64,000 bases of DNA from contig NW_024704743.1 of assembly GCF_018977255.1 (NCBI RefSeq), positions 23,934,001 to 23,998,000 of the forward strand, in the 5' to 3' direction. The stretch comes from Callorhinchus milii. Taxonomy: Eukaryota. Of this stretch, positions 12,952 through 63,267 are shown piece by piece. The stretch's first letter is position 1. The number at the start of each line of letters is the position of its first letter. The position numbers and the translations under genes are program-made. The notes beneath the pieces were generated by a model. The model saw only the letters and a program-made list of their open reading frames with translations. It ran no database searches and had not been told where the DNA came from.

Positions 12952-13871
12952 ATGTATGCAGATGAACCCCAACTCTATCTCACTATCTGCCTGTCCGACA
13001 TCAAGTCTTGGACGAGGGACAACTTTCTCCAACTCAACGTCAGCAAGACTGAGGCCCTCCTGATTGGCTCACGCCAGCACCTCTGCACCTTGGGCGCTGG
13101 CAGCATCAACATCCACGGCTGCACACTCAACCTCACTAAGCCAGTCAGGAACCTGGGTGTCTTGTTTGACCCTGAACTGTCCTTTCTCCCTCACATCCGC
13201 GCCATGACAGGCACTGCCTACCACCACCTCCGCAACATAGCCAGACTCCGCCACTGCCTCACCCCTCAGGCTGACAAAACGCATTCGTCACATCAAGGCT
13301 CGATTATGGAAACTCCCTCCTCATCGGCCTTCCCAGCTCTTCCCTTCACAAGCTGCAGATCATCCAAAACTCTGCAGCTCGTGTATTCTCGCGTACCAGG
13401 CTCCGTGACCCCATCACTCCCACCCTCACCCGACTCCACTGGCTCCCCATCCCCCAGAGGATCGAATTCAAGATCCTTGTCCTCATTTTCAACGACATCC
13501 ATGGCCTTGCCCCCTCCTACCTTTCTGACCTGCTGACTCCCTATCAACCTGCCCGCTCCCTCCATTCAGCAGGCTCCGGTCTGCTCCATGTCTCCCGCCT
13601 GACCCGCCCTACTTTCAGCTCTCTGCCCCCACACTCTGGAACTCCATCCCACAGTCTCTTCACCTCGCTTCCTCCCTTGCCTCCTTCAAGGCCGATCTCA
13701 AGACCCTCCGCTTCGATCATGCCTTCATTCCCCCTCCCACCTCTCTGCCTTCCCTCACCCCTCCCCCACCCCTCCCCCATGCTCGGGTCCTGAACCCTGA
13801 TTGTCCAGCACCTTGGGACATCCTCCCAATGTGAAAGGCGCTCTGTACGTGTAATTTTGTTGTTGTTGTTG
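12952..13871 (+). mobile_element. L2-clade LINE, 5'-truncated and relatively young (RT C-terminus, 3' UTR, (TTG)n tail)
   Basis: ORF 12952 reads YADEPQLY...DIKSW..NFLQLNVSKTEALLIG...VRNLGVLFDPELSF.PHI, typical of L2 RT. It is frameshifted near 13275 and ends in gtgaaaggcgct...ttgttgttg. Confidence 0.93.
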
Positions 13872-14014
13872 TGGCTTACATAAAGCTGTGTATATAGAAT
13901 TACATAGAATGATACGGTTTGGAGACAAGCCATTTGACCTAACCAGTCATCAAAGTTTTAATGCAGATATTGAGTTTTCATTTTTATCACCTTTTCTCCA
14001 TTAGGATCTGATTA

Positions 14015-37140: not shown

Positions 37141-37806
37141 ACAACAACAACAACAAAATTACATTTATGGAGCACCTTTCACGTTGGGAGGACATCCCAA
37201 AGCGCTGAACAGTCAGGTTTCAGGGCCCGAGCATGGGGGAAGGGTGGTGTAGGGGTGAGGGAAGGCAGAGAGGTGGGAGGGCGACCAAAGGCATGGTCGA
37301 AGAGAAGGATCTTGAAATCGGCATTGAAGGAGGCAAGGGAAGAAGTGAGGCGAAGGGACCATGGGATGGAGTTCCAGAGTGTGGGGGCAGAGGTTGAAAG
37401 CCCGGCCACCAATGGTAGGGCGGGTCGAGCGGGAGACATGGAGCAGACCGCAGCCCGCTGAACGGAGGAGCGGGCAGGTTGGTAGGGAGTCCGCAGGTCA
37501 GAGAGGTAGGAGGGGGCAAGGCCATGGATAGCCTTGAAAATGAGGACGAGGATCTTGAATTCGATCCTCTGGGGAATGGGGAGCCAGTCGAGTCGGGCGA
37601 GGGTGGGAGTGATGGCGTTATGAAGCCTGGTGCATGAGAGTACACGAGCTGCAGAGTTTTGGATGATCTGTAGCTTGTGAAGTGAAGAGTTGGGAAGGCC
37701 GATGAGGAGGGAGTTCCCGTAGTCGAGCCTTGATGTGACGAATGCGTGGGTGAGTGTTTCAGCAGCCTGAGGGGTGAGGCAGTGGCGGAGTCTGACAATG
37801 TTGCGT
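37141..37806 (-). mobile_element. L2-clade LINE 3' fragment, same family as 12952-13871
   Basis: ORF 37179-37826 reads HAFVTSRLDYGNSLLIG...KLQIIQNSAARVL...LDWLPIPQRIEFKIL. (CAA)n tail at 37141. Confidence 0.93.
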
Positions 37807-43980: not shown

Positions 43981-46074
43981 TAAACACTAGCCAGACTGGT
44001 TGGGCGTGTTTCATGGGGTAACACTCTCTGTAACAGATCACATACAAAAACAGTATTAAGCGAACAGTCAACATGAGTGCCAAGAATTCAGCATGAGTAC
44101 TGCACAAGTAACCACATGCAAATGTATGAAACCAATTTCATCGGGTAAGTCGGTGCTGAGTGTTGAGCTTTGGGGCCTGTTTAAGGTTATCAAAATGTAA
44201 TTAAGACATGTGTGTCAAAGATTGTAGTGACTATGTGTTGAGTATTGAGAGTGCAATGAAACATGCTGATAAAAAGCCTGTGTCAGACTGGCCTCGGTGC
44301 TGTTCATAGAATCAGGTCTCCGAATGCAACCTCAAATGTGATTCATCAATGCACTACTGGGACTAATGTCAATATGTACAGGAGTCACATTAATGGGATC
44401 TCCCGTTATAAGTTAGCAACAAAAAGATTGGCTTTTTAACGGTTGGCGTGTGATTGACCGTTGTGTGTATGAGAGCGAAACTGGAAAAGAGATGGAAAGC
44501 CAAGATATAAGGGAAAAAAGTGCGACTGGGAACAATTAGAGTTATCTCTTCCTTTCCGGGTGATAAAATAGTTTTACATCAGCAAGTCTTTGCACTTACC
44601 TTCACATTGGAAATGCAGCAACCTGTCCAGAAAACAGAGCTTTGAGATGGATGGAGTGGCGGTCTTACATATTATCCAAGAGCACTCATATAACAGAGTG
44701 TAGTTTCCCCAAAAGCAGATCAGTGCTCTGTCAGCTGACATCACAGAAGGAAGGCTGTTAGCTGCTTGAGAGCTCCACCAATGTGACAGAAATCTTAATA
44801 GCCATTTTAATTAAATTTAACTCAAGGGTACGATAAAACCAATGCTGCCTAGAGGTTCAGTGCTTTTGTGTGCTGAAATATTGCCCCTTGTCAGGCACCA
44901 GTGAGCTTGCACTTCAGGCACTGCAACAAACCATTGCTTATTTTCGCAACTTTTGGGTCCCCAGTGACAATAGAGTATGCAGATGGTGAAAATTGTGAGG
45001 TTTATGAAATCTCATAAATAAATGCTGTTGAGGAATTGGTAATCATTGGTGTAAGCTCTCCCCCCCCCCCCCAACTTTGTCACAAAATGGACTGTCAACT
45101 CCCAGTGGCAGCTTCAGTTGGGCTTTGGGCCCAACCATTGTGATAAAGTTGGGGGCGGTGACACACTGAGCCCATCGAAGGTTACTGAATTACTCAACCA
45201 CATATATCAATTATATAATAATACAGTAATAATAATAACCCTTACATTTGATGTTCGCCTTTCACGTCAGGATTACCGATTTTATTTGGGAGAATTATTG
45301 ACCAGGACACCAGGAGAAACTCCCTTCTCTTTTTGAATACAACTACAACAATAAAATTACATTTGTATAGCGCCTTTCATGTCAGGAGGATGTCCCAGGG
45401 TGCTGAATAGTGCTATGGGGTCTTTAACATCCATCTAAACAGGCTGACAGGACCTTGATTTAATGTCTTATATAAAGAACAGAACCTCCAGCAATGCAGT
45501 ATTATCCCCATTGAGAATGATCACATCAAATCTCACAATTTTCAACTTAGAACTTCTTAGATTTGATCTATTAAAAAAAGGTCAGGTCTGACCTCGATTT
45601 TGTGAATGTCAAATGCCCTATGTAGTTGATGACTTTTAAAGAGAGAATGATCACTTTCATCTGCACACGATATCACTTCTCTTGGCCTGAAACAGACAAT
45701 TGCAAACCAGGATTCGTTTCAGTTTCATCTTCATACTCCTTATATTTGATACAGCACCTTATACTGTACTGTGTACCACAAAGCCATGGCATGAATGACC
45801 AATTTTAATTGGGGGGTTTGTTTGTCAAGACACTAAGATAAATTCCCTTCTCTTTTCAAATAGTGTCATGGGATCTTTAATATCCACCTGAACACGCACA
45901 CAGAATCCCAGTTTAATATCTCATCTGAAAGATGGAGCCTCGGACAATGTAGCCCCAGCACTGCATTGGAGTGTCATCTTACATTATGTGGATTCCACGG
46001 CCCAATGTGGGGCTTAAACCCACAACCGTCTGACTCAGTGGTGAGAGCACTACCAACTGAGCCATTGAACAATA

Positions 46075-46365
46075 CAAATGTACTGCACAGAAGAAGGCCA
46101 TTTGGCCACTTGAGTGTGCCAACTCCCTCAAGAGCAATCCTTTCAGTCCCACTAAACTTCACTTTCCCCATATCCCTATAGCTGACTCTTTTTAAGGTAT
46201 TTGGTTCATTCTGAAATTAAATTATTGCCCTCTAGTAACTAACCCATCGACCACTGAAAATAATTTCTCCCTGTTGACTATCAAAACCTCTAATAATTTT
46301 AAAGAACTCTATCAGGTCACCTCTCAACCTCCTTTGTTCCAGCAGAAAAAGTCCCAGTTCCTTCA
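46075..46365 (-). mobile_element. CR1 fragment
   Basis: ORF 46232-46417 reads RLKELGLFLLEQRRLRGDLIEFFKIIRGFD. Confidence 0.85.
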
Positions 46366-46463
46366 GCCTCCACTCATCCCCGGTTTTATCCTCCGCGCCC
46401 CCCCCCCAACCCAACACGAAACCCTCTATCGCCTTGACATCTTTCCTAAAGTGAGTTAACCAT

Positions 46464-46775
46464 ATAATAATAATAATCCTTGCATTTGATATAGTGCCTT
46501 ATCACGTCTTCTAGACGTCTCAAAGCGCTTCACAGAATTTACTGTAAAGTGAATTGACTGTATATTTGTGGGCGAAACGTGGCAGCCAAATTGTGCACTC
46601 CAGTGTTCCAAAAACAGTCGTGGATTGAGTGACCAAATTATTATTGTTTTTTTTCTTGAGGGTTTATTATTAGGCGTATGGAGTAAGGAAACTTGCACAA
46701 GGTTTCACATTGCTAGGAATTGAACCCAGGTCTCTCGCTTGCAAAGCGAGTGCTCTAACCACTGAGCTACAGGAC
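46464..46775 (-). mobile_element. tRNA-headed SINE, short variant (part of composite unit A)
   Basis: Reverse complement of the 15294 family. Confidence 0.92.
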
Positions 46776-47524
46776 CAATACTGGACACGATATTCTAACT
46801 GCGGTCGAACTAACGAGTTATATACGTTTAGTATTACCTCTTTGCTTTCATATTCTAGATGCCTATTTATAGCATCTAAGAATCCTTTGTTCTTCTTGTT
46901 CTTCTTCCCATAGCCAACTAGTTACAAACTTGGTCAAGGCTCAGTGTAAACCAGCAACAATGTAAATTAATCCTGCTATTAAATATTTGATATTTAAAAT
47001 CACGGAAAATCTCCTTCATTTTCTAGTTTACATGGGGCAAGTGTAATTAATTAATGATTTCTTGTACATTCTTCTTGCCATTTTGTATAATTATAAAGCT
47101 CTGTTCAAAAGATTCCAATTACTAAGTGGTCACTTGTCCTTTGTTAGAGACAATTTTCACAGCCACCATTGCAGTGGCTGAGCTGCTCACTGAGTGCTGA
47201 TACCTTTGTGGAGTGATTCGCATTTCGCCCACAAATATACAGTCAATTCACTTTACAGCACATTCTGTGAAGCACTTTGAGACGTCAAGAAGACGTGAAA
47301 AGCGCTATATCAAATGCAATGATTATTATTATTATTATTAGCATGTGGAAATCCAAAGGTAGAAATTCTACCAGATCATGATTTACTCTACTTATGTATC
47401 TTTTCAGAGCATCCAAAATTTGGCAAATTCTTAAAACTCAGCCTTAATTTTGAACCCGGTTTTCTGAAACTTCCTTTAAAAACTACAGAAAACTGACTCG
47501 GTTTTTTGTTTGACTGTCTTTTGT

Positions 47525-47790
47525 ACCTCCACATTGGTGCTCTTACCCGCTCAGCCTTCCCTTACCTTCAAACCATCATCAGCCTCTGCTTCAGGCCACC
47601 AAGACCCTCATGCATGGCTTTCATTACTACTTCAATGTTCTGCTCGCCCATTCTTCCCCACACAGGCTGTAGGCTATCCAGAATTGTGTACCCCATATCC
47701 TCTCATGCACCAGGCTCTGGGAACCTATCACACCCATCCTCGCTCAGCTCTACTGGCTCCCCATCCCTCAGCGGTCGAGATCAAGATCCT
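47525..47790 (+). mobile_element. Decayed L2 fragment
   Basis: catgcatggctttcattact...ctctactggctccccatccctcagcggtcgagatcaagatcc aligns by eye to the L2 at 13280-13480. Confidence 0.7.
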
Positions 47791-49289
47791 AGAGAGCAAC
47801 CTGTACAACAACAATAACTGACTTATTCAGTATTAGTAAGTATCCAAACTAATGCTTGTGAATTGGGCTTGATGGATTAATGTGCTTTAAATAGAGTAAA
47901 ACAGTACGGAAACAGGCCATTCAACCCATGTAGTCCACACTCGTCTCCTAGTGCTGTGTGCAGGTTGTTTATCCTTTACAAGAAGTACCATTTCCATGTG
48001 TTTGAACCAGTCTTAGCCAAGCTGTTGCCTCAGATATTTATTGAGTTTATAGTTTTTTATTGCAACATTTTTTAAAAAGAGTTGCTGTTTTCTTTTCAAC
48101 GTGACTATACATGCTGCGAGACTGATTCCTTTTCCGGAAATATCAAAGTAATTCATCACATCTGACTTACTGCACTGATTTTCTGGATGGTTTCCCAGAC
48201 ACTATTTCACTTGCAGCAAATAAAATAAAGATAGTTATTGATGAAAGATGTCATAGATGAGTACTTATTCGTGATTAAATGGTTCTCCTGGTTCCTCCAA
48301 ACCTTCTCTTTATGATACAGCAACTTTATTTTTTTGTTTGTTTACTCACCATTATTAGATTTACTCTGTTCTCCTCTTTATGTGTCTGCTATGGTACTAC
48401 CGACAACAACAACAAATTATTTTTATATTGTGCTTTTCAAGACATGTTGCAAACAACAAGTAGACCAATTCTCAGAGTTGTTTTTGACCCAGCCTCTGGG
48501 AGATGATAGAGAGCAGTTTAACTGGCTCTCTGTTGCTTTACTTTCTCCACCCTGCCCTTGGTTGGCATCTTCACAGCATTGCATGATGGAAATTGGATCA
48601 ATATCTGTCAAAGCAGGGGATTAAGGGTTGCAGAGATAGTAACAGCTCTGTTTGACTATAATGGAGGTCAGGAAGGGAATAAAGGAACCTTGAGGTTAAG
48701 GGATGGACCAGGGAGGAGGAGAAGTCAATGACTGTGTAGTTATGCATGGGTTGTGGCAAGACAAGGCTTAATGGGCCAAACAGCTATTTGCTCATTCAAG
48801 GTTTTATGATGTTCTGACTGAGGGTGGGTACTTAGTAATGAGTGGAAATCTATAGTCTGTTCAGTGCATCAAAATAACTGACTTGAAATTGTTCAGGTTT
48901 CTTCAGCTGGAATGGATTGTGACCATTTGGGTAAATCTGCTGGTAGTTTGAGACCATCACTCATTCAATTCTGATTTCTGGGCACAAAGAGGTCTATCAT
49001 TTTGTCTCTCGTGTCTGGACCTCAGAGGTTCCTTTGTGACAATATTTCGATTTGGGAATCGGCAGTCAAAACTGTGAATATTGACTTTGTTAAATCAGTG
49101 TTGTGAAAACAGGATTGGATAATGGGGGCTTGATGTCAATCACAAGAGCTTCTGACTCACAGAGATTTGCGGGAGGAGGATGGACAATATAGAACCATAA
49201 AAATGGAGGAATAGGTGGCCATTCAACCTACTTTTTCATGTCAGTGTATGCACTTCCATAAGTATGCTCCTCCAATTCCCAGCTCTTTC

Positions 49290-49635
49290 CACATTTTTGT
49301 AGGTGAGCATGACAGCCAATTTGTGCACACCAATGCCCCACCAGCTACAATGAAATGAATGATCAATTTTTCAGGGGGACTCGGGATTATTGACCAGGCC
49401 AGCAGAAGAGATTCCATTCTCATTACAAGTAGTGTCATGGGATCTTTAATCTGAACAGGCAGACAGGACGTTGCTTTACCATCTCATTCAAAGGAAGGCA
49501 CCTCTGGCAATGCAGTGATTCCCCCCAGCACTTTACTGGAGTGTCAGCCTAAACTATAAACTGAAAGTTTCAACATGGAACCCACAACTTTCTGACTCAG
49601 AGGTGAGAGAGTGCTACCAACTGAACCAGGCTCAC
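49290..49635 (-). mobile_element. Long Deu-domain SINE
   Basis: Head complement cccacaactttctgactcagaggtgagagagtgctaccaactgaaccaggct. Further partial copies lie at about 440-668(+), 1175-1530(+), 30190-30380(-), 31595-31915(-), 33405-33760(+), 40560-40720(+), 45230-45510(-) and 45740-46062(-). Confidence 0.8.
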
Positions 49636-51056
49636 ATCCAATTTAAATGAGGATAAAGAGTCCTGCAAATATTCCTCCCCAATCCAAATTCACCTTGGAA
49701 AACTTTTAATTAATTGAACTGCTCATTTTGCTATTGTCTGTTCTGTTCTTGTTTTGGCATTTGACTATGTAACAGAGTTCCATTTCAAATGAAATTCATC
49801 CTCTGGTGCACTTCAATCGCTGTTGTCTAAACTAACAGGGACGGAACTGGGGAAAATGAGATGGACAGAAAGTAACCTGATATTCAAGTACATTTCTTAG
49901 TCTCCAAAATTGTTCTTCCGTAGCAGTTGAACAGAGACAAACTTCCAAACGCCTTGGAAATGTGCAAAATGGAAAAACTGAAAACTGAAATTGCAGGGTA
50001 TTCAAATGAAAATGTATCAGCTAACTACACTATAGAGCAAAACTCAAATACCAGCACTTCTGCTTTTTATTCCTCTGGTACTGCAATGCAGAATGCAATA
50101 TTAAAGATCACTTCTAAAGAAAAATTCTAAGTGGTCTCCATAGTGATCCCAACAATACCGCAATGAATCAGACGTGAAACGTACAATACAAATTTATATT
50201 TATATAGCGCCTTCCGTGGGAGGACCAAACAAGGTACTTAACAATCCTCACTTGGCATCTCACGGTGGAGTAGGGAGGAGAAAGATGAATGAAAACGCAG
50301 TCAAAAAGATGTATGTCTTGAGACAGACCTTGAATGAGGGGAGGGAGTTCACTCCCTCAGATTAAATGATGCACTTGTCCTGCATAGAGGCCTTTTGACA
50401 GTAAATCCTAACACCAAAGTGCTAATGACAATGGAGCTATCTCATCCAGTCTTTCTGTAAAGTTTATCTCAAACCACTTTCACTAATGGTATAAAAATAT
50501 AGGCTGATATTTTTATATCAGCCAGATATTGTAGCACCCATTCATGCAATTGTGGAAAGTCCTCTCTCAGGGGTAGGCACCAGCGATCATTTAGGAACAG
50601 AACACAAGGTCTGTGTTAACTGCCTTTTGAGGAAATAAAACTGTACGCAAACCAGTTAGTGTTCCTCTTCTTGCTTTGTGATGCTTTGTCGTACTTCACT
50701 GCCAAGCGGCTCAATGCAGTTTGGGGTTTTGTTGTTTGCCAGCTGTCTCCTACATGTGCTAAAACTAGTGTGCCTTGTCTTCAGGGACTTGGAAAGACGT
50801 ATTGAATTTCAGTCAGTAAAATATGCCCGAAGTGTTTGAGTGTTAAATTGATTGTAAGGCTTGATTGTAAGGCTGACTGGATTGGGCGATCAATGTGGCT
50901 GGGATGAAAAGAAAGCCTCCTTCAACCTCATGATGAAGGATATAATGGGTGAACGATTCGGACTGAGGGTAAAAGCATATTCTTCCCGAGGGGATGACAC
51001 TTGCTTCTGTTCCACATTAACCTTGCCCTCTTCTCTCTTTTTCCTTTTCCCTGAAG

Positions 51057-51315
51057 GCAAATACGCCATGCGTGATCTGGTCCACCGTCTCCCTGGAGGG
51101 AGCAGCAGTGGGAGTGGAGGAGGTGGTGGAGGTGGAGGTGTTGGCAACACTGGTACCAGCACGACCGTGAGCAAACCCATCTCTGATGAAACGATCACTG
51201 CCATTTGCTGCGCTTTGCATGAAGTCATCACTAAAAACATGGAAAATGCCAAGGCCTTACGAGATGCAGGCGGCATTGAGAAGCTGATCGGCATCGCGAA
51301 GAGTAAAGGAGACAA
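51057..51315 (+). CDS. CTNND2: Delta-catenin coding exon (5th), with a Gly/Ser-rich insertion
   Basis: Long polypyrimidine tract, acceptor ctgaAG, donor GTatgt. 259 nt, phase 1->2. Encodes (G)[85 protein letters not shown](K). Confidence 0.97.
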
Positions 51316-52941
51316 GTATGTAGCGGCTGGATCTGTTCGAGAGCAATGTTTTCCACTAGTTGCAGTGAAGTGGTGCACTTAACCCATTTTCTCTCAAACT
51401 GCCCCAGAATTACAGGAGAAACTCCACTTTGAAACCTCGGGACGTTTTGTTCTGTTCAAAATTCAGACAAAATTCACATATGTTCCAGGCAGTATTATGA
51501 ATGGAAATGCTTCAGAAGCTAAATTGAATGGTAGATTTTCAGAAATTCCACAGTCTCTTGTTTAGGTGACAAGGTCTTTGAGGAACAATCTGTAATATAA
51601 TAGAACCTTCTTTCAACGGTAGGAGGGGGTTCAAAATTGACTCTGCATTGCACCCATTGATTTATCATCCCTGGGGGAGAGGGTAACCTGCTCTTGGGCT
51701 TTTTAAGTCCTGTCTTAAAATCTGTATCGCAGGGTAGTCCCAAGAATCTACTAATGTGGGTGACAATAAATAATGAATGAAGAGTTATTGCATTTAGGGT
51801 ACACGTTATGAAAGCTTGGAAGTTTCATCCCAGTTTTTCAAAACAAATGCTAGGAGTCTACAGTCAACATGTTTAAAAAAAATTATAATAATAATACTTT
51901 GGTTACTCAATCCCCGACTGTTTGTGGGATACTGCTGTGCTTAATTGGCTGCCGCGTTTGGCTGACAAAATATATAATGAATTAATTTAGCAGAATTTTC
52001 TGTGAAGCACTTTGAGACGTCTCAACAGTGTGATATGTACTATATCAAATACAAGGAATATTATTATTATTACTTGAGGACAGGCCTGTATTGGGTAATC
52101 AACAGCTCAAGCAGATTGTTCGGAAGGGTAGTAGAAGCCAGGACAAGATTAAGAATGAGCTTGATGTTGTATTAGGAAGAAGGTAGGGTGCAAATTCTGC
52201 AAGTATGAGATCATGACACCCCTAGAAGGGGAATTTCTTTGAAAAGGACCATGAGGTCAGAGGAATATGCGGATAGATAGGGACGTTTCATCTGAGAGAA
52301 AGTTTGATTTTCAACAAATTGAGGAATTGAAAGTTTGGAACTGGTTTAAACTTTTAACTAATCCTTACTTATTGGCACCAATATAATGGGCACAATGTCT
52401 CACTTCCCAACATGGTGATGTGCTTGTCCAAAAGTCTGGGGTTGTGGAGTCCAACCCCTATCTAGTTGCTGAGGTCGATGGCCTTTTTTATTGGGAGCTG
52501 CACTGGGTAGAGTATCCAATGTGTCCGGACCTTAATTCATTTGTCGCCCCCTGTGCTTGGTCACTTTACTGAGCATTTGCTGTGCAGTTTTCTGTTAAGG
52601 TTCTGCATGAGTGCTGTGGCTGCTTGTTTTGCCGTTTTTCACAGCTTTCTGCAGAAGCTGACACACTGCTGAAGGAAACTAAAACTCGCTTGTACATCAC
52701 TGAACACTGGACACCTTCATCATGGTGATAAAAGAGCATCTATAAAAACTCAGCCGTGCACATCTGATCGAACTTTTACAGTCGAAAGGTTTTATTTTGA
52801 TGCTTTCTCATTTCAGAGCTGAAAGTAGCAATCTGGTTTCAAAGTAATTGCTATTGATTCATAGTAAACAAAACAAAAAACAGCCGTAGAGTATTTTCAC
52901 CCAAGTAAGTGCTGAAAGGGACTGGACACAATCACAGCAAA

Positions 52942-53105
52942 ACTAGTATTGTATTCTGCCAGTTCTGACGAAGGATCATGGGCCTGAAATGTTGATCCAC
53001 TTTCCTTTCTCCATAGATGCTGCCTGAGCTGCTGAATGTTCCCAGCGATCTCAGTTTTTGTTTCAGATTTCCAGCATCTGTAGTATTTTTTTTACTATTG
53101 TATTC
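52942..53105 (+). mobile_element. Second copy of the Penelope-type repeat, without the inverted left arm
   Basis: Aligns to 24418-24575 (actagtattg.attctg.ca.ttctga.gaagg...cactttcctttctccatagatgctgcctga.ctgctgaatgttcccagcga). Confidence 0.75.
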
Positions 53106-53466
53106 TACTGAGTTACCCCATAATCCCAAATGTTACGAAGCAAAATATGTGTAATCTTAACAAGAGGGACTTTTTAACATTGATTCCATTGTAAAAGAAA
53201 TATTGGATTTTAAAGATGTTGTGAAAAGATTTTCTTTAGTGTTACATGTAAGTTTAGACCCTCGATGTCCGATTGCTCCTTTGTCATCTTATTGTATTTG
53301 CCTCAACTCTTGTTTGGAGACTTTCAGATAGTGGACGTGTAGAAATCCCCCTTTTAACAAGATCACAAGATTAGTTTGGATGAAATGGCTCTTCAACCCT
53401 TCTGATCTCATCCATCTGGAATACACACCGTAATGTCCTCCCATCACAACATTAAGCTGTTTTTTA

Positions 53467-53805
53467 GTAATACAATAATAATAGTAATCCTTACATTTGA
53501 TAAAGCGCCACATCATTGATACAACTCAAAGTGCTTCACAGGGTATGCTGTAAAGTGTATTGACCGTATATTTTTGGGGCAAAATACGGCAGCCAATTGC
53601 ACACAGCGGTATCCCACAAACAATCATGGATTGAGTGACCAATTTTTTTTATTGAGTGATTATTATGCCCAGAAAGTGATCCGCCAATCGACTAACAACT
53701 GTGTTCCTACTTATTGCAAGGTAAACAGAGGTGTGTGTTGTAAGGAAATTTGCCTAAGGTTTTGCCCTGCCTGGAATTGAACCCAGGTCCTCCTGTTTGT
53801 GAAGT
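53467..53805 (-). mobile_element. tRNA-headed SINE, long variant
   Basis: Complement of the tail, Deu-like body and B box (ggaattgaacccagg). Confidence 0.85.
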
Positions 53806-53989
53806 GAAATTTTTAAATGAGTCTAGTGTCCTAGCCTCAGCCACCCATCCTAGCAACCTAATCATTAATTACCCACTGGGTATAGACTACTTCTTGGTGC
53901 CTACCTGACATTGCCCTTTGCAACTCTAAACTTATAACTTGTTGATCTACTGTCTTGGTGCATCCTAAGATAGTGTCCTGGTTTACTTT

Positions 53990-54335
53990 TTCAGTCTTAT
54001 TTAAAATGGTATACCCCTCTATAAGGTCATCTCTTAGATGTCTTCTCTCAAGACTGAAGAGCCCTAGCTTGTCTAATCATTGCTCATAGCAGAATACTCT
54101 TAACAGTGAGGATCATACATGTTGCTCTCCTCTGTACTCCTTCTGTGACCTGGACAGAGCTCTTATGTCTTGATGGCCAGAACTGTATGCAGTATTCTAG
54201 GTGCAGCCTAACAAGAGTACCATACAGCCTGAGTATGACTTCTTGGGATCTAAACTCAACCAATTTAGCAAAATAACCCACCATCCTGTTTACCTTATTT
54301 ATTGCTGCCTCACACTGTTTTAACATGGTGAGTCA
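53990..54335 (-). mobile_element. CR1 LINE fragment
   Basis: ORF 54084-54326 reads QCEAAINKVNRMVG...SQEVILRLYGTLVRLHLEYCIQFW. Confidence 0.9.
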
Positions 54336-55414
54336 ATTAACACCACTGGATCTCTTTCAACAACAACAACACTTAACACCACTGGATCTCTTTCAACAAC
54401 AACAACAAAATACATTTATGTAACGCCTTTCACGTCGGAAGGACGTCAGTTTTCCCCTTGGTGGAAATGGGGAACAGAGGGCTCTGCAGACATGTCATGG
54501 GTCAGTGACCAGCAGCTCTATGGATTAAAACAAAGTGCCCGGAGCTACTTGAGAGATATTAATACATGTACTAAAGATTTCATAAATTATGAGGAAAATG
54601 TTCAGTAGATTATATTTATGTGTACCTGAGGGGTGCATTTCTCCTTCCACACTCCTACACCTCAATCCAAATTTGTATCATTAAGTGTTGGCAAGTGCCG
54701 TAAGCATTTGAAATATCATTAATTGCCCCACTATAGGTTTGCAGGATGTATAATTCTTCATTGAGACATTAGATAAGAATATGTCGGTTCTGTGAGAATG
54801 CTGTCACAAATCAGCTGCTACAATCGCCTAAAAAATACACACTACAGTAAATCCTATGAAGTACGTTGAGACATTTTGACGATGTGATAAGGCATTATGT
54901 CAAATATAAAGATTATTACTGTTATTAATATTGAAGTACAGTTTGGTGGTGCATTGTCGTTTCTCCAAAAGCATGCATTAAGAATGCAAAAAGACAGCAA
55001 CAAGAAAACAAGAAACTATGTTTAGCTTGTAACTTTATCGTACATATTCTCTGGCAGCCAAGGGGACTGCATGTCAGCAATTTACACAGATACTTTCTCA
55101 GTATTGCAGTCACTGACAATCTAATAGAATAGGAAGGACAAGAAGTAGAAAAAACAAAATTAAATGTTAAAGCAGTGACATTCCCCGAGAAAGGTTTGAA
55201 CACTTTTTCTCCTCCCTAAAGCAGAAAGAGGAAACCTTCTTCTAAAATTGTGATCTTCTAACCTGGAAGTATCTTTGTTGTCAGAAACAGATGTATTTTG
55301 ATGCACTTGGTCATTGAAATGTGCTGTTCAGTGTTTCTGTAATTTGTGCACATCATATGCACACAGTTTTCAAACACAAATTCTGTCAGATAGTTAAGCT
55401 TTGAATGAGTCATT

Positions 55415-55760
55415 ATCTGCCTGTGGCTCAGTTCCCATCTGCCAACTTTATCCACATCTCTGCTGAAGGCTCTGACACAAGCTGGGGAACAATTCAGCAG
55501 GTGCTACCATTACTCTGTTACCTCTCCCTAGTGACTGTTCATGTGTGACCCCAGACATTCAGTCTTGGCAAGCGGTTTGACTGTCACTTCCATCACAACT
55601 AACCCCGTTCCTTGCACAGCACAGGAGGCGTCACTGATAGTGATAGGGAAGCCTGGCTGAATCCCCCCTCCCCAGCCTGGAGATGCTAAGGCCAATTATA
55701 ACATCTCGACAGCAGTCAACTCAGCACACACTGGGGATTGAACCCTCTGGTCTGTGTGAC
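55415..55760 (-). mobile_element. Older SINE-like element of a different family (unassigned)
   Basis: B-box complement ggggattgaaccc next to aactcagcaca and ggccaattata. Related decayed pieces lie at about 11410-11590 and 16455-16560. Confidence 0.55.
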
Positions 55761-55761
55761 T

Positions 55762-55988
55762 TTGTTGACTATATTTGTGGGTGCAACGCGGCAGCCAATT
55801 GCGCACAGCAGTGTCCCACAAACAGTCGTGGATTGAAGTGACCAAATTATTATTGTTTTTTTTTCTTGAAGGATTATTATCAGGCGTGTGGAGTAAGGAA
55901 ACTTGCACAAGGTTTCACCCTGCCGGGAATCAAACCCAGGTCTCTTGCTTGTGAGGCGAGTGTTCTAACCATTGAGCTACAGGACTCC
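55762..55988 (-). mobile_element. tRNA-headed SINE, short variant, tail missing
   Basis: Head complement ends ...ttgagctacaggactcc; the body matches the 15294 family. Confidence 0.88.
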
Positions 55989-55991
55989 ACA

Positions 55992-56432
<441 letters not shown>

Positions 56433-56999
56433 TAGACTAGGAAAAAGATTCACTAGTGTATTCATTTCACAGTTCACTTCTATTTGCCCTGTCATACATT
56501 TTACACACATTATTCAATCAGTGGCAATCAAATAATTTTGCAGCAAAAGGCCATACCGTGCGCTTTCCTCTCCTGACTGCATTCGTTGTCACCGTAGAAT
56601 ATATTAAGACTGTATCAGCACATCTATTGTATTATTTTCAGTAAATATGTTGGTTTGGGTTTGATTTGTTAAAGGTTTATGAGCAATTAGTTTGAAGTTT
56701 ATATTTAACCTATATTAGGAGCAGATCACTGTAATACTCTACAATGTCCTCCATTCACCCCCTCCCTCTCTCACCCCATTCCTCTCCCCCCCACCCCCCC
56801 CATGCCCCTTGGCTGCCCACAAAACATGCTGGAATTGCAAACCATGGTCCTTTAATCTGCACTTGTTTAGCTTGTGTTCTACACACCTTTGCTGACTTAC
56901 AATTTTGCTAATTCAAATGGCTTGTCCAGTTCTAGTCAGAGTTGGGATAGTTATTGAAATATAATGGTACTTCAGCCATTTCCTTCAATTGCCTGTTAT

Positions 57000-57270
57000 C
57001 GAGAGACCTGAGTTCAATTCCAGGCAGGGCGAAACCTTGGGCAAGTTTCCTTACACCACACACCTAATAATAATCCCTCCAAAACAAAAAACAATAATAA
57101 ATTTGGTCATTTTCAATCTACGACTGATTGTGGGACATTGCTGTGCGCAATTGGCTGCCGCGTTCGCCCACAAATATACAGTCAATTCACTTTACAGTAT
57201 ATTCTGTGAAGCGCTTTTGGATGTCTAGAAGACGTGAAAAGGGCTATATCAAATGCAAGGATTATTATTA
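57000..57270 (+). mobile_element. tRNA-headed SINE, short variant, 5'-truncated
   Basis: Very close by eye to 15335-15610, sharing the diagnostic ggtcattttcaatctacgactg. Confidence 0.9.
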
Positions 57271-60200
57271 ATATTATCATCATAGATAAGGCTGGACATT
57301 TTACTTCTAAGTATTTCCCCGTGTTCCTTTTCAATTTTTGCTTTTTTTCAATAATTCCTTTCCCCGAACAGTTGTTTAATGATATTGTATTATGCACGTA
57401 GTAAGTAGTATGAGTGAGCAAGCTTTATTAAAACAAAGGTCGTACCTCTGTGAAGCATGGAGACCAAATGCTCCCTTTCCTGCAGTTCAGGCAGGTGTCT
57501 GAAGCAGGACATCCAGAATTCTTACAAATGAGCACAGCCTGAAATGTGAGCAGCTTTGTTGGAGAACGTATACCTTGACATATGACATGTGGCATTTTCG
57601 TTAGACTGCAAACATTATTAAACTAGAAGAGAACATTGTGCTGCACAGTATTGCAAAGAACATGTTTGAAGGGAAATATATTCATCTGAATTACCACTTG
57701 CTGCAAAAGCTTATATATAGAGTTATTTAATAATAGAAATCATATTTGAACTTGATATAATAATCATCCTTGCATTTGACAGTGCATTATATTGAAATGT
57801 CTCAAAATCCTTTATGCAATGAGTGAAGATGATAGAATTTTACAGCACACCATACCTGTTTTCTGAGTATATTTAATAGTGACTTGTTTGCAGACCATCA
57901 GAATACAGCAACAAATCTCTATCAGCTTCAATCCACAAGCAGATACCCAATGAGTATTATGAGTGACCAATTCATCTGCTTTGAGAAATTTAAATGAGGA
58001 AAATTTACTCGTCAGCACACCAGAAGAACTCAGTGGGAGCACTCTTCGCCTCTTAAGCCTGAATTGTCGTGGGTTCAACTTCCACATGGGGTTTTGAACT
58101 CATGTAGACTAAGCTGACACTCCAATGAAGTGCTTTGGGGGTGTTGCAGAGTGGACCTGAACAGTAAGAAGAGATCTCTGTTTTACCTCATTCACAGAGC
58201 AGTACCAATAACAATGCAGCATTCCCTCACTGGAATAACCGGTCAAGGATGGGTCTAGATCATAGAACCAACTGACCCAGTAAGAGTGCCACTCACTGAG
58301 CCAAACTAATACACTTTCAACACTTCAACAGTAACAACTTGCACCTATATAGCGCCCTCCACGCAGGGTAGCAACTTAGAGCACTTAACACTTACTGGGT
58401 GATGGTCATCCCTTGGTTAATGCATATTTTATAATAATACTGTACTTATGTTTGGTATATAGCACTTTTTAGGTCAGGAAGATCTCCCAAAGCACTTGCG
58501 GGAATAATGAAAAATGCAGTGACTGCGTACTTTGTGGCCAAAATATAATGGTATTTTGGTTTAATATTACGATTGGAATTCTTGCTGCTTGTCCAACTAG
58601 GAACACTCTACTTGTTAACAAGAGGCAAGTGGGAAGAAGCCCTGCCCACAGGTTTCAAAGCACCTTAGAGAGGAATGAGAGTTAAGAATATCAAAATCAG
58701 ACTGAGAGTTCCATATGTGTATGTCACCTACACATGGAAATGTGCATGTCTAGAATTGAATGAGCCTTTTCTCCCCAGAGGCATCCACCCATACACCCTT
58801 CTTAACCTATTCCAAAGAGTATTAGGTGCAGGTTGGTGAGAGCCAAGGCCTGGGACTCCAGAATGTGTATTACTGCTGGAGTTTAACTGCTAAAACCACG
58901 ATGAGCTGCACTGGGAGCATCAGTTAGCATTCACTCCCAAACCAAACCAGTCGATAATTAAAGACCGTAATGTTCGACAATTTGATAATTATCATATCAT
59001 AGATCACATTTTGCACCTTCAGGTTTCAGTGTTGGAGATGTGAAGATGGATGAATATTTTGGTGCTCATTTGTTGGATTCAGGAACGAGTCCTTGATTAC
59101 ATGCAGCCTTGCCGCAGAATCAAACGCAGCCGCCAAGACAGCCCCAGTGGGGGAAGCCTTGCCCATTAGCATGAAAAAGACAGCAGTGCTATGCGCTATC
59201 AGCTCCAGCAAAATCTCTCAGAGGCAAAAGAGCAATTTAGCTTTAAAGTCTTTCAAAGATTGTTTTCCCTAGACTGACCTTTTAGTTTTTCCTTTTATTA
59301 CTGAACTTTGTGTTATAATTCCAAGACTTTCTCACTTTTGGATTCTCTTTGTATTAAGCATAGAGGAAGATGCACAGTCTCGCGATTTCTATTTACAAAG
59401 TTTGCCTGACCTCATTAGGTTACTGAAGCAGATCATTCAATATCCAAGTAATGTGGGAACATGTGACTTTACTTAAAACAGTGGTTCCTGCTAGGACTTT
59501 TCTTTGGAGATAGGATGAAAGCATCTCATCAATGAGTTGACGCTTAGCGGTGCAGAGCACCAGATGCTGATTTGGTATAATCCGAAGATCATGATGTATT
59601 TAAGCAGGGAAGGCACAAATGTTTCATAGAATATGGATGGGTAATAGTTTACTAGATGTGTTTGCAAATGTTATCAATTCCCACTTCTGTGGTTACAGTT
59701 GACTGTATCAACCCTGTTTTTCGCTTTTTTTAAGTGCAATTTGCTCTCTTTGATAGGAGAATTTTTTTGCTGTGGTTTAGAACCATGGAAATCATATAAA
59801 TAATCCTTGCATTTTGATATAGCGCCTTTCATTTTGGGAGGGCATCCCAAAGCACTAAGGAGTCCATTCAGCACCTGGTTTGCGCAGAGTTGAATAACCT
59901 CCTCCTGTCCTACCTGTGCCCAGTGAGTATATTATCAATTACAATTCCTGACATCCTGTGCACACGTGACCAGAAATGCAAAGTACATGTCCAGCAGGAG
60001 TCGTGCCTTTGGTGGCCTTTGGGTCTCAGCAAGGAATCCTGGGTCGCGAATATGAGTGAAGGCCGCTATATAAATGCAAGTTGTTGTTGTTGAGTCTCGC
60101 CTACCCTTCTCGTCACCTTATCCTTCAATCTTTCTTTTTAACTCATTTATGTTGCTCTACTTCTCTTACCTTCCCTGGTGACTTGTTCTGCAAGTCCATC

Positions 60201-61887
60201 AGCCGTTAAGCAAAAGATTTTGCCTGACTTTGCTACTTTGATTAAAAAAAACTCTCAGGGGATTACAGAGAACATGGATTTCACGCTGCTTTGCTATTAA
60301 TGCAAAGCATTTCCCCCGACAACAATGAAGGAATTTCACAGTCTTGAGTCATAGTTTGCTTGAAGAGAAAAAGTCACTGGTAAAATTTCTCTCAATTTAT
60401 CAGAACAGAGTATTGACTGACCACCATATCGCCTGAAAATAAGCCACAAGCATTACTTTCATTACAAAGTGAGTAGCTATTAATTTTGTCAGGCAGACAC
60501 CTTCCAGAATAATTGGAAGAAATGACTGCATGCTACAAGCACTGCTTAATGATTATGGGTCTTTTATATTCTTCTAAGGATCTGGTCTAATGGTCTGCTC
60601 TGCAGGATGTCTTTAGAATTGCTTTCATTGGCCAGATTTATCTTTTACAGGAACCTATGCTTCTTGGAATTTAATTGTTTTTCCTCTCCCATTCTTGCTT
60701 AGTAGTTCACCTACAAAATACTACATTACCCACATTACTTTACAATATATCCTGTGAAGCACTTTGAGATAACTCGACAACGTGATAAGCTGCTGTATTA
60801 AATTTGCAAGGATTATTATTGATTTTTATAGTTTTGTCTATTTCCCCTCTTCCCCAAATAGACAGTTTCTCCTGAGCCCATGTGCCAACTTTCAGTGGAT
60901 TTGACAAGTAGATGCCAATGATACTCTTTCTGGTGGGCATATGACAGGAGCATGGACATTTTCTTCACAGAAAGAGAGCCGTCAGTCTATCATGATTGTG
61001 CCACCACAGCTGTTGTTCTAATTTGCTTCCTTTTTATTAATTCTACTTTCCAACTATTTCTTAATATTCCTAATGATTTTACCACTTAGTAATAATAATA
61101 ATAATAATAATCCTTGCAATTGATGTAGCATCTTATCACGCCGTTGAGATGTCTCAAAGCACTTCACGGAATATACTGTAAAGTTGATTGATTGTGCATT
61201 TTGGGGTAAAAACATGGCAACCAATTGCACACAGCAATGTCCCACAACCAATGGTGGATTGAGTGACAAAATTATTTTTTTTTTAAAAAAGGAATTATTA
61301 CCCCCAGAAAAGCAATTCGCCAATCGACTGATGACTACTAGACAGATGTCTCAAAGCGCTTCAAAGGATATACTGTAAAGTGGATCGACTGTATTTTGTG
61401 GACAAAATGTTTGACCAAGTGATAAAGATTTGAGAGTGAGTTTCAGAACTAGGTTAATGTGTGTAGATCACACGAATCCCTCCAGAAAGAGATTAGCACT
61501 CAGTGAGCAGCTCAGCCACTGCAATGGTGGCTGTGAAAATTGTCTCTAACAGAAGACAAGTGACCACTTAGTAATTGGAATCTTTTCAACACAAAATACA
61601 AAATGGCAAGAAGAATGTACAAGAAATCATTAATTAATTACACTAGAAAATGAAGGAGATTTTCCGTGGTTTTAAATATCAAATATTTAATAGCAGGATT
61701 AATTTATGTTGTTGCTGGTTTACGCTGAGCCCTGACCAGGTTTGTAACTAGTTGGCTATGGGAAGAAGGACCAGGAGAACAAAGGACTCTTAGATATATA
61801 GGCATCTAGAATATGAAAGCAAAGAGGTAATACTAAACTTATATAACTCGTTAGTTCGACCACAGTTAAAATATCGTGTCCAGTATT

Positions 61888-62182
61888 GGTTCTGTAGCTC
61901 AGTGGTTAGAGCACTCGCTTCGCAAGCAAGAGACCTGGGTTCGATTCCCAGCAGTGTGAAACCTTGTGCAAGTTTCCTTACTCCATACGCCTAATAATAA
62001 TCCCTCAAGAAAAAAAAACAATAATAATTTGATCACTCAATCCACGACTGTTTGTGCGACACAGCTGTGCGCAATTGGCTGCCGCATTTCACCCACAAAA
62101 TTAGTCAATTCACTTTATAGTATATTCTGTGAAGCGCTTTGAGACGTCAAGAAGACATGAAAAGCGCTATATCAAATGCAAG
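61888..62182 (+). mobile_element. tRNA-headed SINE, short variant (part of composite unit B)
   Basis: ctgtagctcagtggttagagcactcgcttcgcaagc...gggttcgattccc...aaagcgctatatcaaatgcaag. Confidence 0.92.
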
Positions 62183-63267
62183 TGAGGTGACCATATAATA
62201 ATGATAATCCTTGCATTTGATATAGCGCTTTTCACATCTTCTAGACGTTTCAAAGCACTTGGATGTCAAGTGGAAAGATATCAAGGCGATAGAGGGGGTT
62301 GATGGGGGTGGGCGCGTGTCTTTAAAATGTAAATTTCTGCGAGCCAAAAGCCCACCCCACCCGTAGATGGACAATTCCAAATTTTTATTTACTCAATTTA
62401 ATTCAAATTCACTTTTATTCATTTTAATTGTTAAGGAGGATTTGTTTGATTTATTATGAATGTTAGGAAGGATTTACAATGTGAATTTTATTACACTATG
62501 TTTATTTTAAATGCATCAACACTTAGCCAGAAAATCTGGCAGGCTGGACCAGACTCCCCTGCCCCCCCCCCCCCGCCCCCCACACACCCATTTCCCATTT
62601 GTCTGGTTAGCTGATGGTGAAGTGTATTTGCTTCCGGTTCCTTTTTGAACAATTTCATTCATCCAACCTGAATAGCCCCATGTTTGTTCCAGGTCTCCTC
62701 TCTGGGTTTATCCCCAATGGCGCAGCCAAGATTGAGAACTTGACCCACAGAGATACTCCCATGGAATAATACTGTTGCATGTTGTCTATGAGACAGTCAG
62801 TTCTGCCTCTTTGTCATGGTTTCCTCAAAATATGTTGTTGAACACTATATTAATTTTGATCTTCTAATCTTATTTGTTCCACTCTTGCCATTTGTCTCAC
62901 TGTTATAGCTGAGAGCTACAGTGAGCAGGGGGTCTGCTCCCAGCCCTTTGCCAATAGTGGCCTGAAGATAGCGTCCATAATGAGATGAACGAGTGTCCAG
63001 GATTCTCTTCCTCTAGGTAGGAGGTATGTTGCTTCTGCTCACTGCCGCCTACAGCAGTGAAGCTATGATCAGGAGCTCAGCAGAATGTAGGATTGAACCT
63101 GGGTTCTCAGCAATCGCCTGGGGAATAACGCTGCATTGTTTTAGTTGCCAACCTTCAAATGAGACCTAAATGCTAGGTCCTTTCTGCCTCTTCAGATAAA
63201 TGTTAAAAGATCTCATGACATGATCAAAAATATTTTTTCCCAACTTCCTGGCCAACAATCCTTGCTT

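Follow-up and report, generated by a model that had tools for sequence, protein, structure and literature searches.

What has placed the same chimaeric stretch of non-repeat DNA, CR1-type sequence and a SINE twice, 14 kb apart and in opposite orientation, within the introns of one gene? A preliminary description of the 64,000-nucleotide stretch of DNA analysed here (hereafter the window) had offered two readings, an undescribed composite retroelement, in which a SINE carries a long 5′ extension, and an old local inverted duplication. The coordinates of the features discussed below are given in Table 1.

Table 1. Positions in the window of the two copies, of the sequences around them and of the exons between them
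Feature	Positions	Strand	Remark
CR1-type ORF2 and 3′ part after SINE (A)	46050–46463	-	only 46394–46463 common to B
Copy A	46394–47220	-	likely parent; CR1 runs on past 46394
tRNA-headed SINE with ATT tail, in CR1 (A)	46464–46775	-	head ~5 bases short; target TGGTC duplicated
CR1-type ORF2 remnant 5′ of SINE (A)	46776–46895	-	
Non-repeat part of copy A	46896–47220	-	two genome matches
Fragment P, 5′-truncated SINE 3′ end adjoining the inner boundary of A	47219–47340	+	candidate template-switch partner of Q
Host-gene exon between the copies, 259 nt	51057–51315	+	p120-catenin family
Host-gene exon between the copies, 85 nt	56318–56402	+	
Fragment Q, tail half of older family-X repeat interrupted by B	61345–61409	-	
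63-base spacer at left end of B	61410–61472	.	no second genome match found
Copy B	61473–62316	+	likely daughter (templated insertion)
Non-repeat part of copy B	61473–61772	+	
CR1-type ORF2 remnant (B)	61773–61888	+	
SINE of B, forward part	61889–62182	+	tail absent in forward orientation
Fold-back: inverted last 51 SINE bases, tail and 16 CR1 bases	62180–62260	-	81 bases
Junction filler	62261–62271	+	11 bases, with 9-base repeat of following CR1 sequence
CR1 continuation in B	62272–62316	+	cut in mid-ORF2
AT-rich body of family-X repeat, other half split by B	62318–62570	-	

Two inverted copies and their number in the genome

BLASTN of the window against itself paired positions 46479–47220 (copy A) with 61473–62182 (copy B) on opposite strands over 743 columns, with 89.0% identity including gaps and a score of 961 bits. 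This agrees well with the inverted copies of about 90% identity that had been described at 46464–47220 and 61473–62182. The extra stretch of approximately 15 bp mentioned there was found in A (15 bases), and the unique stretch of ~330 bp was recovered as a non-repeat part in which A and B differ at 17 of 300 aligned bases. The unit is real but longer than the ~0.75 kb first given, approximately 0.83–0.85 kb, with CR1 sequence resuming beyond the SINE tail in both copies; likewise, ahead of the SINE both copies have a CR1 piece, but one of about 115 bases rather than 81.

Over the ungapped columns, A and B differ at 48/706 positions (6.8%), plus indels. The CR1 part contributes 6 differences in 115 bases and the SINE 25 in 290, 10 of the latter being CpG-type, and the non-CpG difference is similar throughout: 5.3% in the non-repeat part, 4.3% in CR1 and 5.2% in the SINE. 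The longest identical run of 76 bases is not unusual (p = 0.16), and recent gene conversion between the copies was rejected on this basis. Judged from these alignments, the duplication is old and has been decaying evenly, as neutral DNA would. Longer hidden homology was sought in the flanks. The inner ones scored 31, where shuffled sequence reached 32 at most. In the outer ones there was a single 99-column match (score 50 versus 33) some 800–900 bases off the ends, which was read as an unrelated repeat rather than as an extension of the pair, and no further A/B homology was found in 40 kb of adjoining DNA.

The two readings had been linked to a search of the host genome with the non-repeat part: many dispersed hits were to indicate a composite family and exactly two hits a local duplication. 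We searched the animal's own genome (992 Mb), with candidates found and then scored. The non-repeat part gave two candidates, both of which (2/2) were scored and lay inside the window. For the CR1–SINE junction we used a spanning pattern of 23 bases that tolerated one mismatch. It gave two hits (1 + 1), again both in the window, and its reversed control gave none; we estimate that it would recover about half the members of a family at 7% divergence. As controls, the same genome search returned 1609 candidates for the CR1 part, with CR1 copies recovered at 80–87%, and 4799 for the SINE. A blank in such a search is not proof of rarity; a family as young as the A/B pair should still have appeared. 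With exactly two genome matches each for the non-repeat part and for the junction, the results support the second of the original readings, and the A/B pair is almost certainly a local inverted duplication.

A SINE inserted in an older CR1

The CR1–SINE junction lies at the same place in A and B, as originally reported, and the SINE interrupts the CR1 at the same base in both copies, which argues for one SINE insertion that predates the duplication. The CR1 reading frame runs to ...RVQYW before the SINE and continues as W.THFRKD.KAIEG after its tail, and the target TGGTC flanks the SINE on both sides. When CR1 relatives were aligned across the SINE site, 4/6 read through with the TGGTC target; the other two showed a deletion in one case and substitutions in the other. 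In addition, the loose ends of other CR1 contigs aligned on B carried uninterrupted CR1 sequence, CACCCCACTTTAGG, at 61890. The head of the SINE is without its first ~5 bases in A and B alike. On the evidence of the sequence, the SINE is an insertion into an older CR1 and is not fused to it.

The SINE carries 13 changes private to A, 15 private to B and 9 common to both, and several of the common ones are also present in other copies. This excess of private over common changes dates the SINE insertion, as read from the alignment, to shortly before the duplication. The SINE sequence itself could not be used to pair A with B: the two differ at 26/292 positions, compared with 24–35 between A and 29 A-like copies, which had been chosen for their likeness to A. 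The pairing is thus by the junction only.

The element has the marks of a tRNA-derived SINE, namely a tRNA-like head (Rfam tRNA, 53.7 bits at 61888–61959), the 4799 candidates noted above and ATT tails. In the Rfam scan the tRNA head alone passed the threshold; nine other matches fell below the gathering score and reflect the hairpin described below. When the SINE tail was compared with LINE 3′ ends in the window, one of the two tested scored above shuffles. We take the remnant to be CR1, by a motif and as in the preliminary description, and the SINE tail to be L2-type. The remnant, which lies behind the RT domain, gave no Pfam hit and the Atlas was uninformative; an ORF of greater length in L008 matches it at 49% identity. 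Among cartilaginous fish, the SINE/LINE pairs HE1/HER1 and SINEX-1_CM (SINE2-1_CM)/CR1-2_CM have been described (PMC3747384). Like these, the present SINE has a tRNA-like head, thousands of copies and a LINE-like tail; unlike them, it is here a passenger and not the mobile unit.

Probable landing site of B and proposed copying of A

The right flank of B had 27 matches in the genome, 5 of them beginning at 62318, and 20 of the 26 other matches were fetched for comparison as an older repeat (family X). A Q-like tail stood directly before the family-X body in 11/20 fetched copies and was absent from that position in the other 9/20; among the 11 matches that reach the first 14 bases of the body, 10 had the Q-like tail, at a gap of 24–34 bases. 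Q lies on the same strand as the family-X body. The family-X majority matched Q at 57/67 positions and the right flank of B at 126/148, both 85%. Since Q has diverged from the majority as much as the right flank has, and tail and body follow one another in 11/20 copies, B most likely landed in an older family-X element, as far as its paralogues tell. These paralogous copies (11/20) point indirectly to an empty landing site in the ancestor, and compared with them ~35 bases between the two family-X halves are missing at B. A clean insertion of B with a 2-base CG duplication was dropped when family X showed this loss. The likeness of Q is only modestly nearest to family X (57/67, versus 53/66 for P and 55/66 for the SINE of A). 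SINE tails are dense in this region, so Q could also be an unrelated fragment.

In the runs of two outgroup organisms, B and C, contigs cover the left flank of copy B, and in organism B also the right flank; none joining the empty site was seen among the joints listed. The outgroup runs X7, X12 and X9 had no contig on 61400–61790 at 84%, a gap that proves nothing.

The CR1 of A matches its relatives down to ~46050, about 340 bases past the shared part, and that of B ends at 62316. Because the CR1 of A is continuous and B splits an older repeat, A is very probably the parent and B the daughter, as judged from the two insertion contexts.

The right-hand part of B contains a structure that the preliminary description had not resolved: positions 62180–62260 are an inverted re-copy of the SINE end, its tail and 16 CR1 bases. 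The first switch into this fold-back has a 3-base microhomology (AAG, 62180–62182) and the return a 5-base one (CACTT, 62256–62260), and the fold-back forms a 51-bp hairpin with 62132–62182 (z = −11). Its arms differ at 5/51 bases, three of them at CpG sites, in keeping with the age of the A/B pair. Both the fold-back and the filler were found in B only. The last junction of B (62316/62318) has no microhomology and one extra base. A fold-back of 51 bases dates poorly and may have arisen independently at about the same time. We also considered a second SINE inserted tail-to-tail. Such pairs were found at 153 places in the search, and of the 50 listed almost every one has a tail on each arm; B is without the forward tail and has host bases of CR1 inverted as well, and this origin of the hairpin was rejected.

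We favour, with a probability of roughly 0.7, a multi-switch templated insertion in which A was copied into B in one repair event, as the junctions suggest. A nearby template is present in A, 14 kb off and the sole other match in the genome. The complexity expected of several switches is seen in the fold-back and the filler, whose similar age suggests that they belong to one event. Homology at the junctions amounts to 3 and 5 bases at the fold-back, to 53/66 between Q and P with the 63-base spacer, and to none at the last junction. On the SINE, the ends of P and Q fall no more than 2 bases apart, with P inverted relative to Q. Many SINE fragments start near this position, which weakens the coincidence. 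The spacer (61410–61472) had no second match in the genome.

The order of events would be as follows. A CR1 would first have inserted at site A, and the SINE then into this CR1. Soon afterwards a strand would have been broken in the old repeat at B, and the end at Q would have annealed to P, an inverted SINE tail about 80% alike, from which copying would have proceeded leftward through A, 14 kb away, during repair or replication; such annealing would, we infer, have led to the copying of exactly the inverted stretch that is seen. Near the end of the SINE, the copying would have switched to the opposite strand at AAG, with 81 bases copied back, and returned at CACTT with a short templated filler. 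A further 45 CR1 bases would have been copied before the rejoining of the family-X body, and A and B would then have decayed evenly to their ~5% non-CpG difference. The 63-base spacer may have been lost from A later, which is a guess, or have come from a lost template. Template switching between diverged repeats is reportedly the subject of one paper. No function is needed to explain the A/B pair.

Precedents for the features of B are found in the FoSTeS/MMBIR template-switch rearrangements (PMC2621351) and the MMB-TI templated insertions (PMC8421209), and similar features in complex insertions (PMC5120786). As these reports describe them, such insertions resemble B in their inverted nearby DNA, several switches, junction microhomology or imperfect homology, templated filler and small loss at the landing site. 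They also differ from it. The template of B is 14 kb off and its insert is ~0.9 kb, whereas MMB-TI templates were sought only within 100 bp; compared with the clinical insertions, B is far smaller and is an old event read from its decay, not a fresh mutation. For the fold-back, short-range template switching offers a precedent (PMC7954356). Like the four-point switch of that report, it is a reverse-complement fragment forming an inverted repeat; by projection its switch order would be 3-1-2-4, with point 2 ahead of point 1, which by the logic given there must be inter-strand. In contrast with the cases described, it is nested in a larger duplication, has an 11-base filler at the return and takes its ancestral state from the paralogue A rather than from an outgroup. 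If read correctly, the A/B pair preserves in good detail the traces of an old multi-switch templated insertion in a vertebrate outside the mammals: the repeats by themselves show which copy is the parent and which the daughter, where the insert landed and in what order the events took place.

A plainer and rather unlikely route leads from A to B as well. A copy of A together with the spacer would have been captured by end joining at a break in the family-X repeat, P would have inserted beside A later, removing the spacer of A, and the fold-back would have arisen separately. This explains both the unmatched spacer and the last junction without microhomology; moreover, P seems to be of later date than Q and has a 2-base CG in common with its flank, and 5′-truncated insertions often share short bases with their flanks. 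However, P would have to be truncated within 2 bases of the end of Q and in matching orientation, and a second rare event of similar age would have to fall within 60 bases of the breakpoint.

It is very unlikely that the parent was instead B, with A arising from it, say, as a retrocopy that bears a 5′ inversion and whose forward part is P, and with the rest of the CR1 lost from B later. The inner end of A does coincide with the truncated end of P, and P has 2 of the 7 derived bases of the SINE end of B and A has none; nevertheless, 2/47 unrelated SINE ends also share two, the rarer variant occurs in 221/4162 pattern hits, and it is B that splits an older element and A whose CR1 is continuous. 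P may have served as the template for the SINE end of B, a reading that was not adopted since 2/47 control SINE ends match as well.

The composite retroelement or 5′ transduction would require that a transcript running from non-repeat DNA via CR1 to the SINE was retrotransposed whole. The identical CR1–SINE junction in A and B, and a visible match that has the SINE on its 3′ side, are what it would predict, yet it is not supported, because no dispersed copies turned up, with only two found, 14 kb apart, and because no retroposon 3′ tail closes the unit: the SINE sits in a CR1 that continues past its tail, and the common sequence extends ~70 bases beyond that tail into CR1 ORF2 and ends without one. 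No target duplication was found around A or B, a weak test, since such duplications can be short or absent. LINEs with SINE partners have also been described as needing the RNA 3′ end (PMC3747384), which counts against this reading. We consider it highly improbable, and with the present finding what had looked like a lead to a new composite retroelement falls away.

Contigs came from two samples of one study (runs X1 and X2), and the assembly may derive from one of them. In each run the contig that spans the left junction of B has A-type bases at 61552 and 61554. These mixed contigs are compatible with graph cleaning as well as with conversion or inversion. Inverted copies on either side of a segment are the expected geometry of an inversion via staggered breaks, and a breakpoint duplication of a 14-kb inversion would join the left flank of B to A-type bases, as the X1 and X2 contigs do. 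Graph cleaning, when two copies are nearly identical, would produce mixed contigs of this kind too, and both exons between the copies lie on the same strand as the others and splice in frame with them, so that an inversion is scarcely credible. An assembly artefact, for which only the repeat-rich setting speaks, is more improbable still, as A is set apart from B by indels and by differences at 6.8% of bases, contigs of the A type and of the B type each lie over 61677–61827 in X1 and in X2, and contigs bridge the left junction of B (X1 and X2) and the right one (X1).

Host gene and a possible effect on splicing

The copies flank two exons of a gene of the p120-catenin family, which we take to be delta-catenin (CTNND2). 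It gave a match to catenin delta-1 (E = 6.9e-5) and to Pfam Arm. Its exons, at ~19.3, 27.1, 38.0, 41.7, 51.1 and 56.3 kb and past the window, share the plus strand; splicing was tested for four of them and keeps the reading frame. Skipping of both exons between the copies (259 + 85 = 344 nt) would shift the frame.

Among the 276 inverted matches in 104 kb none is as strong as A/B (961 bits), which also leads the 10 inverted pairs that flank the two exons; old LINE inverted pairs approach it, with 926 and 904 bits. The predicted duplex of A with B has −1200 kcal/mol, compared with at most −388 for five other SINE pairs tried. Where introns around exons contain reverse complementary matches, these can promote back-splicing or skipping of the exons (PMC8330042). 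The A/B pair resembles these in lying inverted around two exons; the likeness is one of geometry only, with 3.8 kb and 5.1 kb separating the arms from the exons and with even decay. It is conceivable, at low odds, that A and B would pair in the RNA and loop out the two exons, giving a lineage-specific circular RNA of 344 nt and a frame-shifted, skipped mRNA. The odds are low because A and B decay evenly, without a sign of constraint. The pair would matter more if it altered splicing of the host gene; were this model true, it would mark the datable birth of a splicing switch from a single repair error. Finally, the 51-bp hairpin of B could, as a predicted structure, serve as a small-RNA or editing substrate.

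Family X and the duplicated unit

The dispersed composite that carries a SINE tail is family X, the older repeat most likely split by copy B, and not the unit duplicated as A and B (the two inverted intronic copies). Family X consists of an AT-rich body of 200–250 bases or more fused to the final ~165 bases of the common SINE; its body gave at least 27 matches, and no tRNA head turned up in the 12 loci scanned.

Features and their positions (window coordinates unless prefixed G000, the C. milii genome)
Feature	Locus	Position
Family X, body	window	62318-62570
Family X, probable tail	window	61345-61409
Family X, further loci	L080-L099	
SINE with inverted internal piece before head	L040	G000:C8:3334774-3334820
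SINE with inverted internal piece before head	L045	G000:C1:86051321-86051370
LINE 3' fragments forming long intronic pairs	window	12979-13872; 37141-37805; 63973 and beyond
Host exon (within ORF 50858-51382)	window	51057-51315
CR1 remnant region	window	53858-54332
Short tandem duplication within CR1 remnant region	window	54330-54400

SINE ends in B and in the genome

Two derived bases were common to P (47219-47340), the truncated SINE end abutting A, and the forward SINE end of B (62083-62182). Neither was seen in A or in the inverted arm of B, which spans only one of the two sites; as many derived bases as in P were shared by 2 of 47 controls. Genome-wide, SINE 3' ends were paired tail to tail, 15–45 bases apart, at 153 places, and the six pairs inspected (L073–L078) had arms of 36–270 bases with 78–97% identity. 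One of these, L073, is possibly a fold-back (arms of 270 bases, 96.7%). In two full-length SINEs a short internal piece, inverted, immediately precedes the head, an arrangement resembling 5' inversion.

At 61374-61706, in contigs of two samples from one study (X1 and X2), A-type alleles were connected to the left flank of B, for which an assembly-graph effect, gene conversion or an inversion allele are alternative explanations.

Other features of the window

LINE 3' fragments (650–900 bases, 83–86%) form additional long intronic pairs, both direct and inverted. Within the CR1 remnant region, the short tandem duplication repeats the peptide NTTGSLSTTTT. The host exon codes for a Gly/Ser-rich insert between armadillo helices, including a run of eight glycines.
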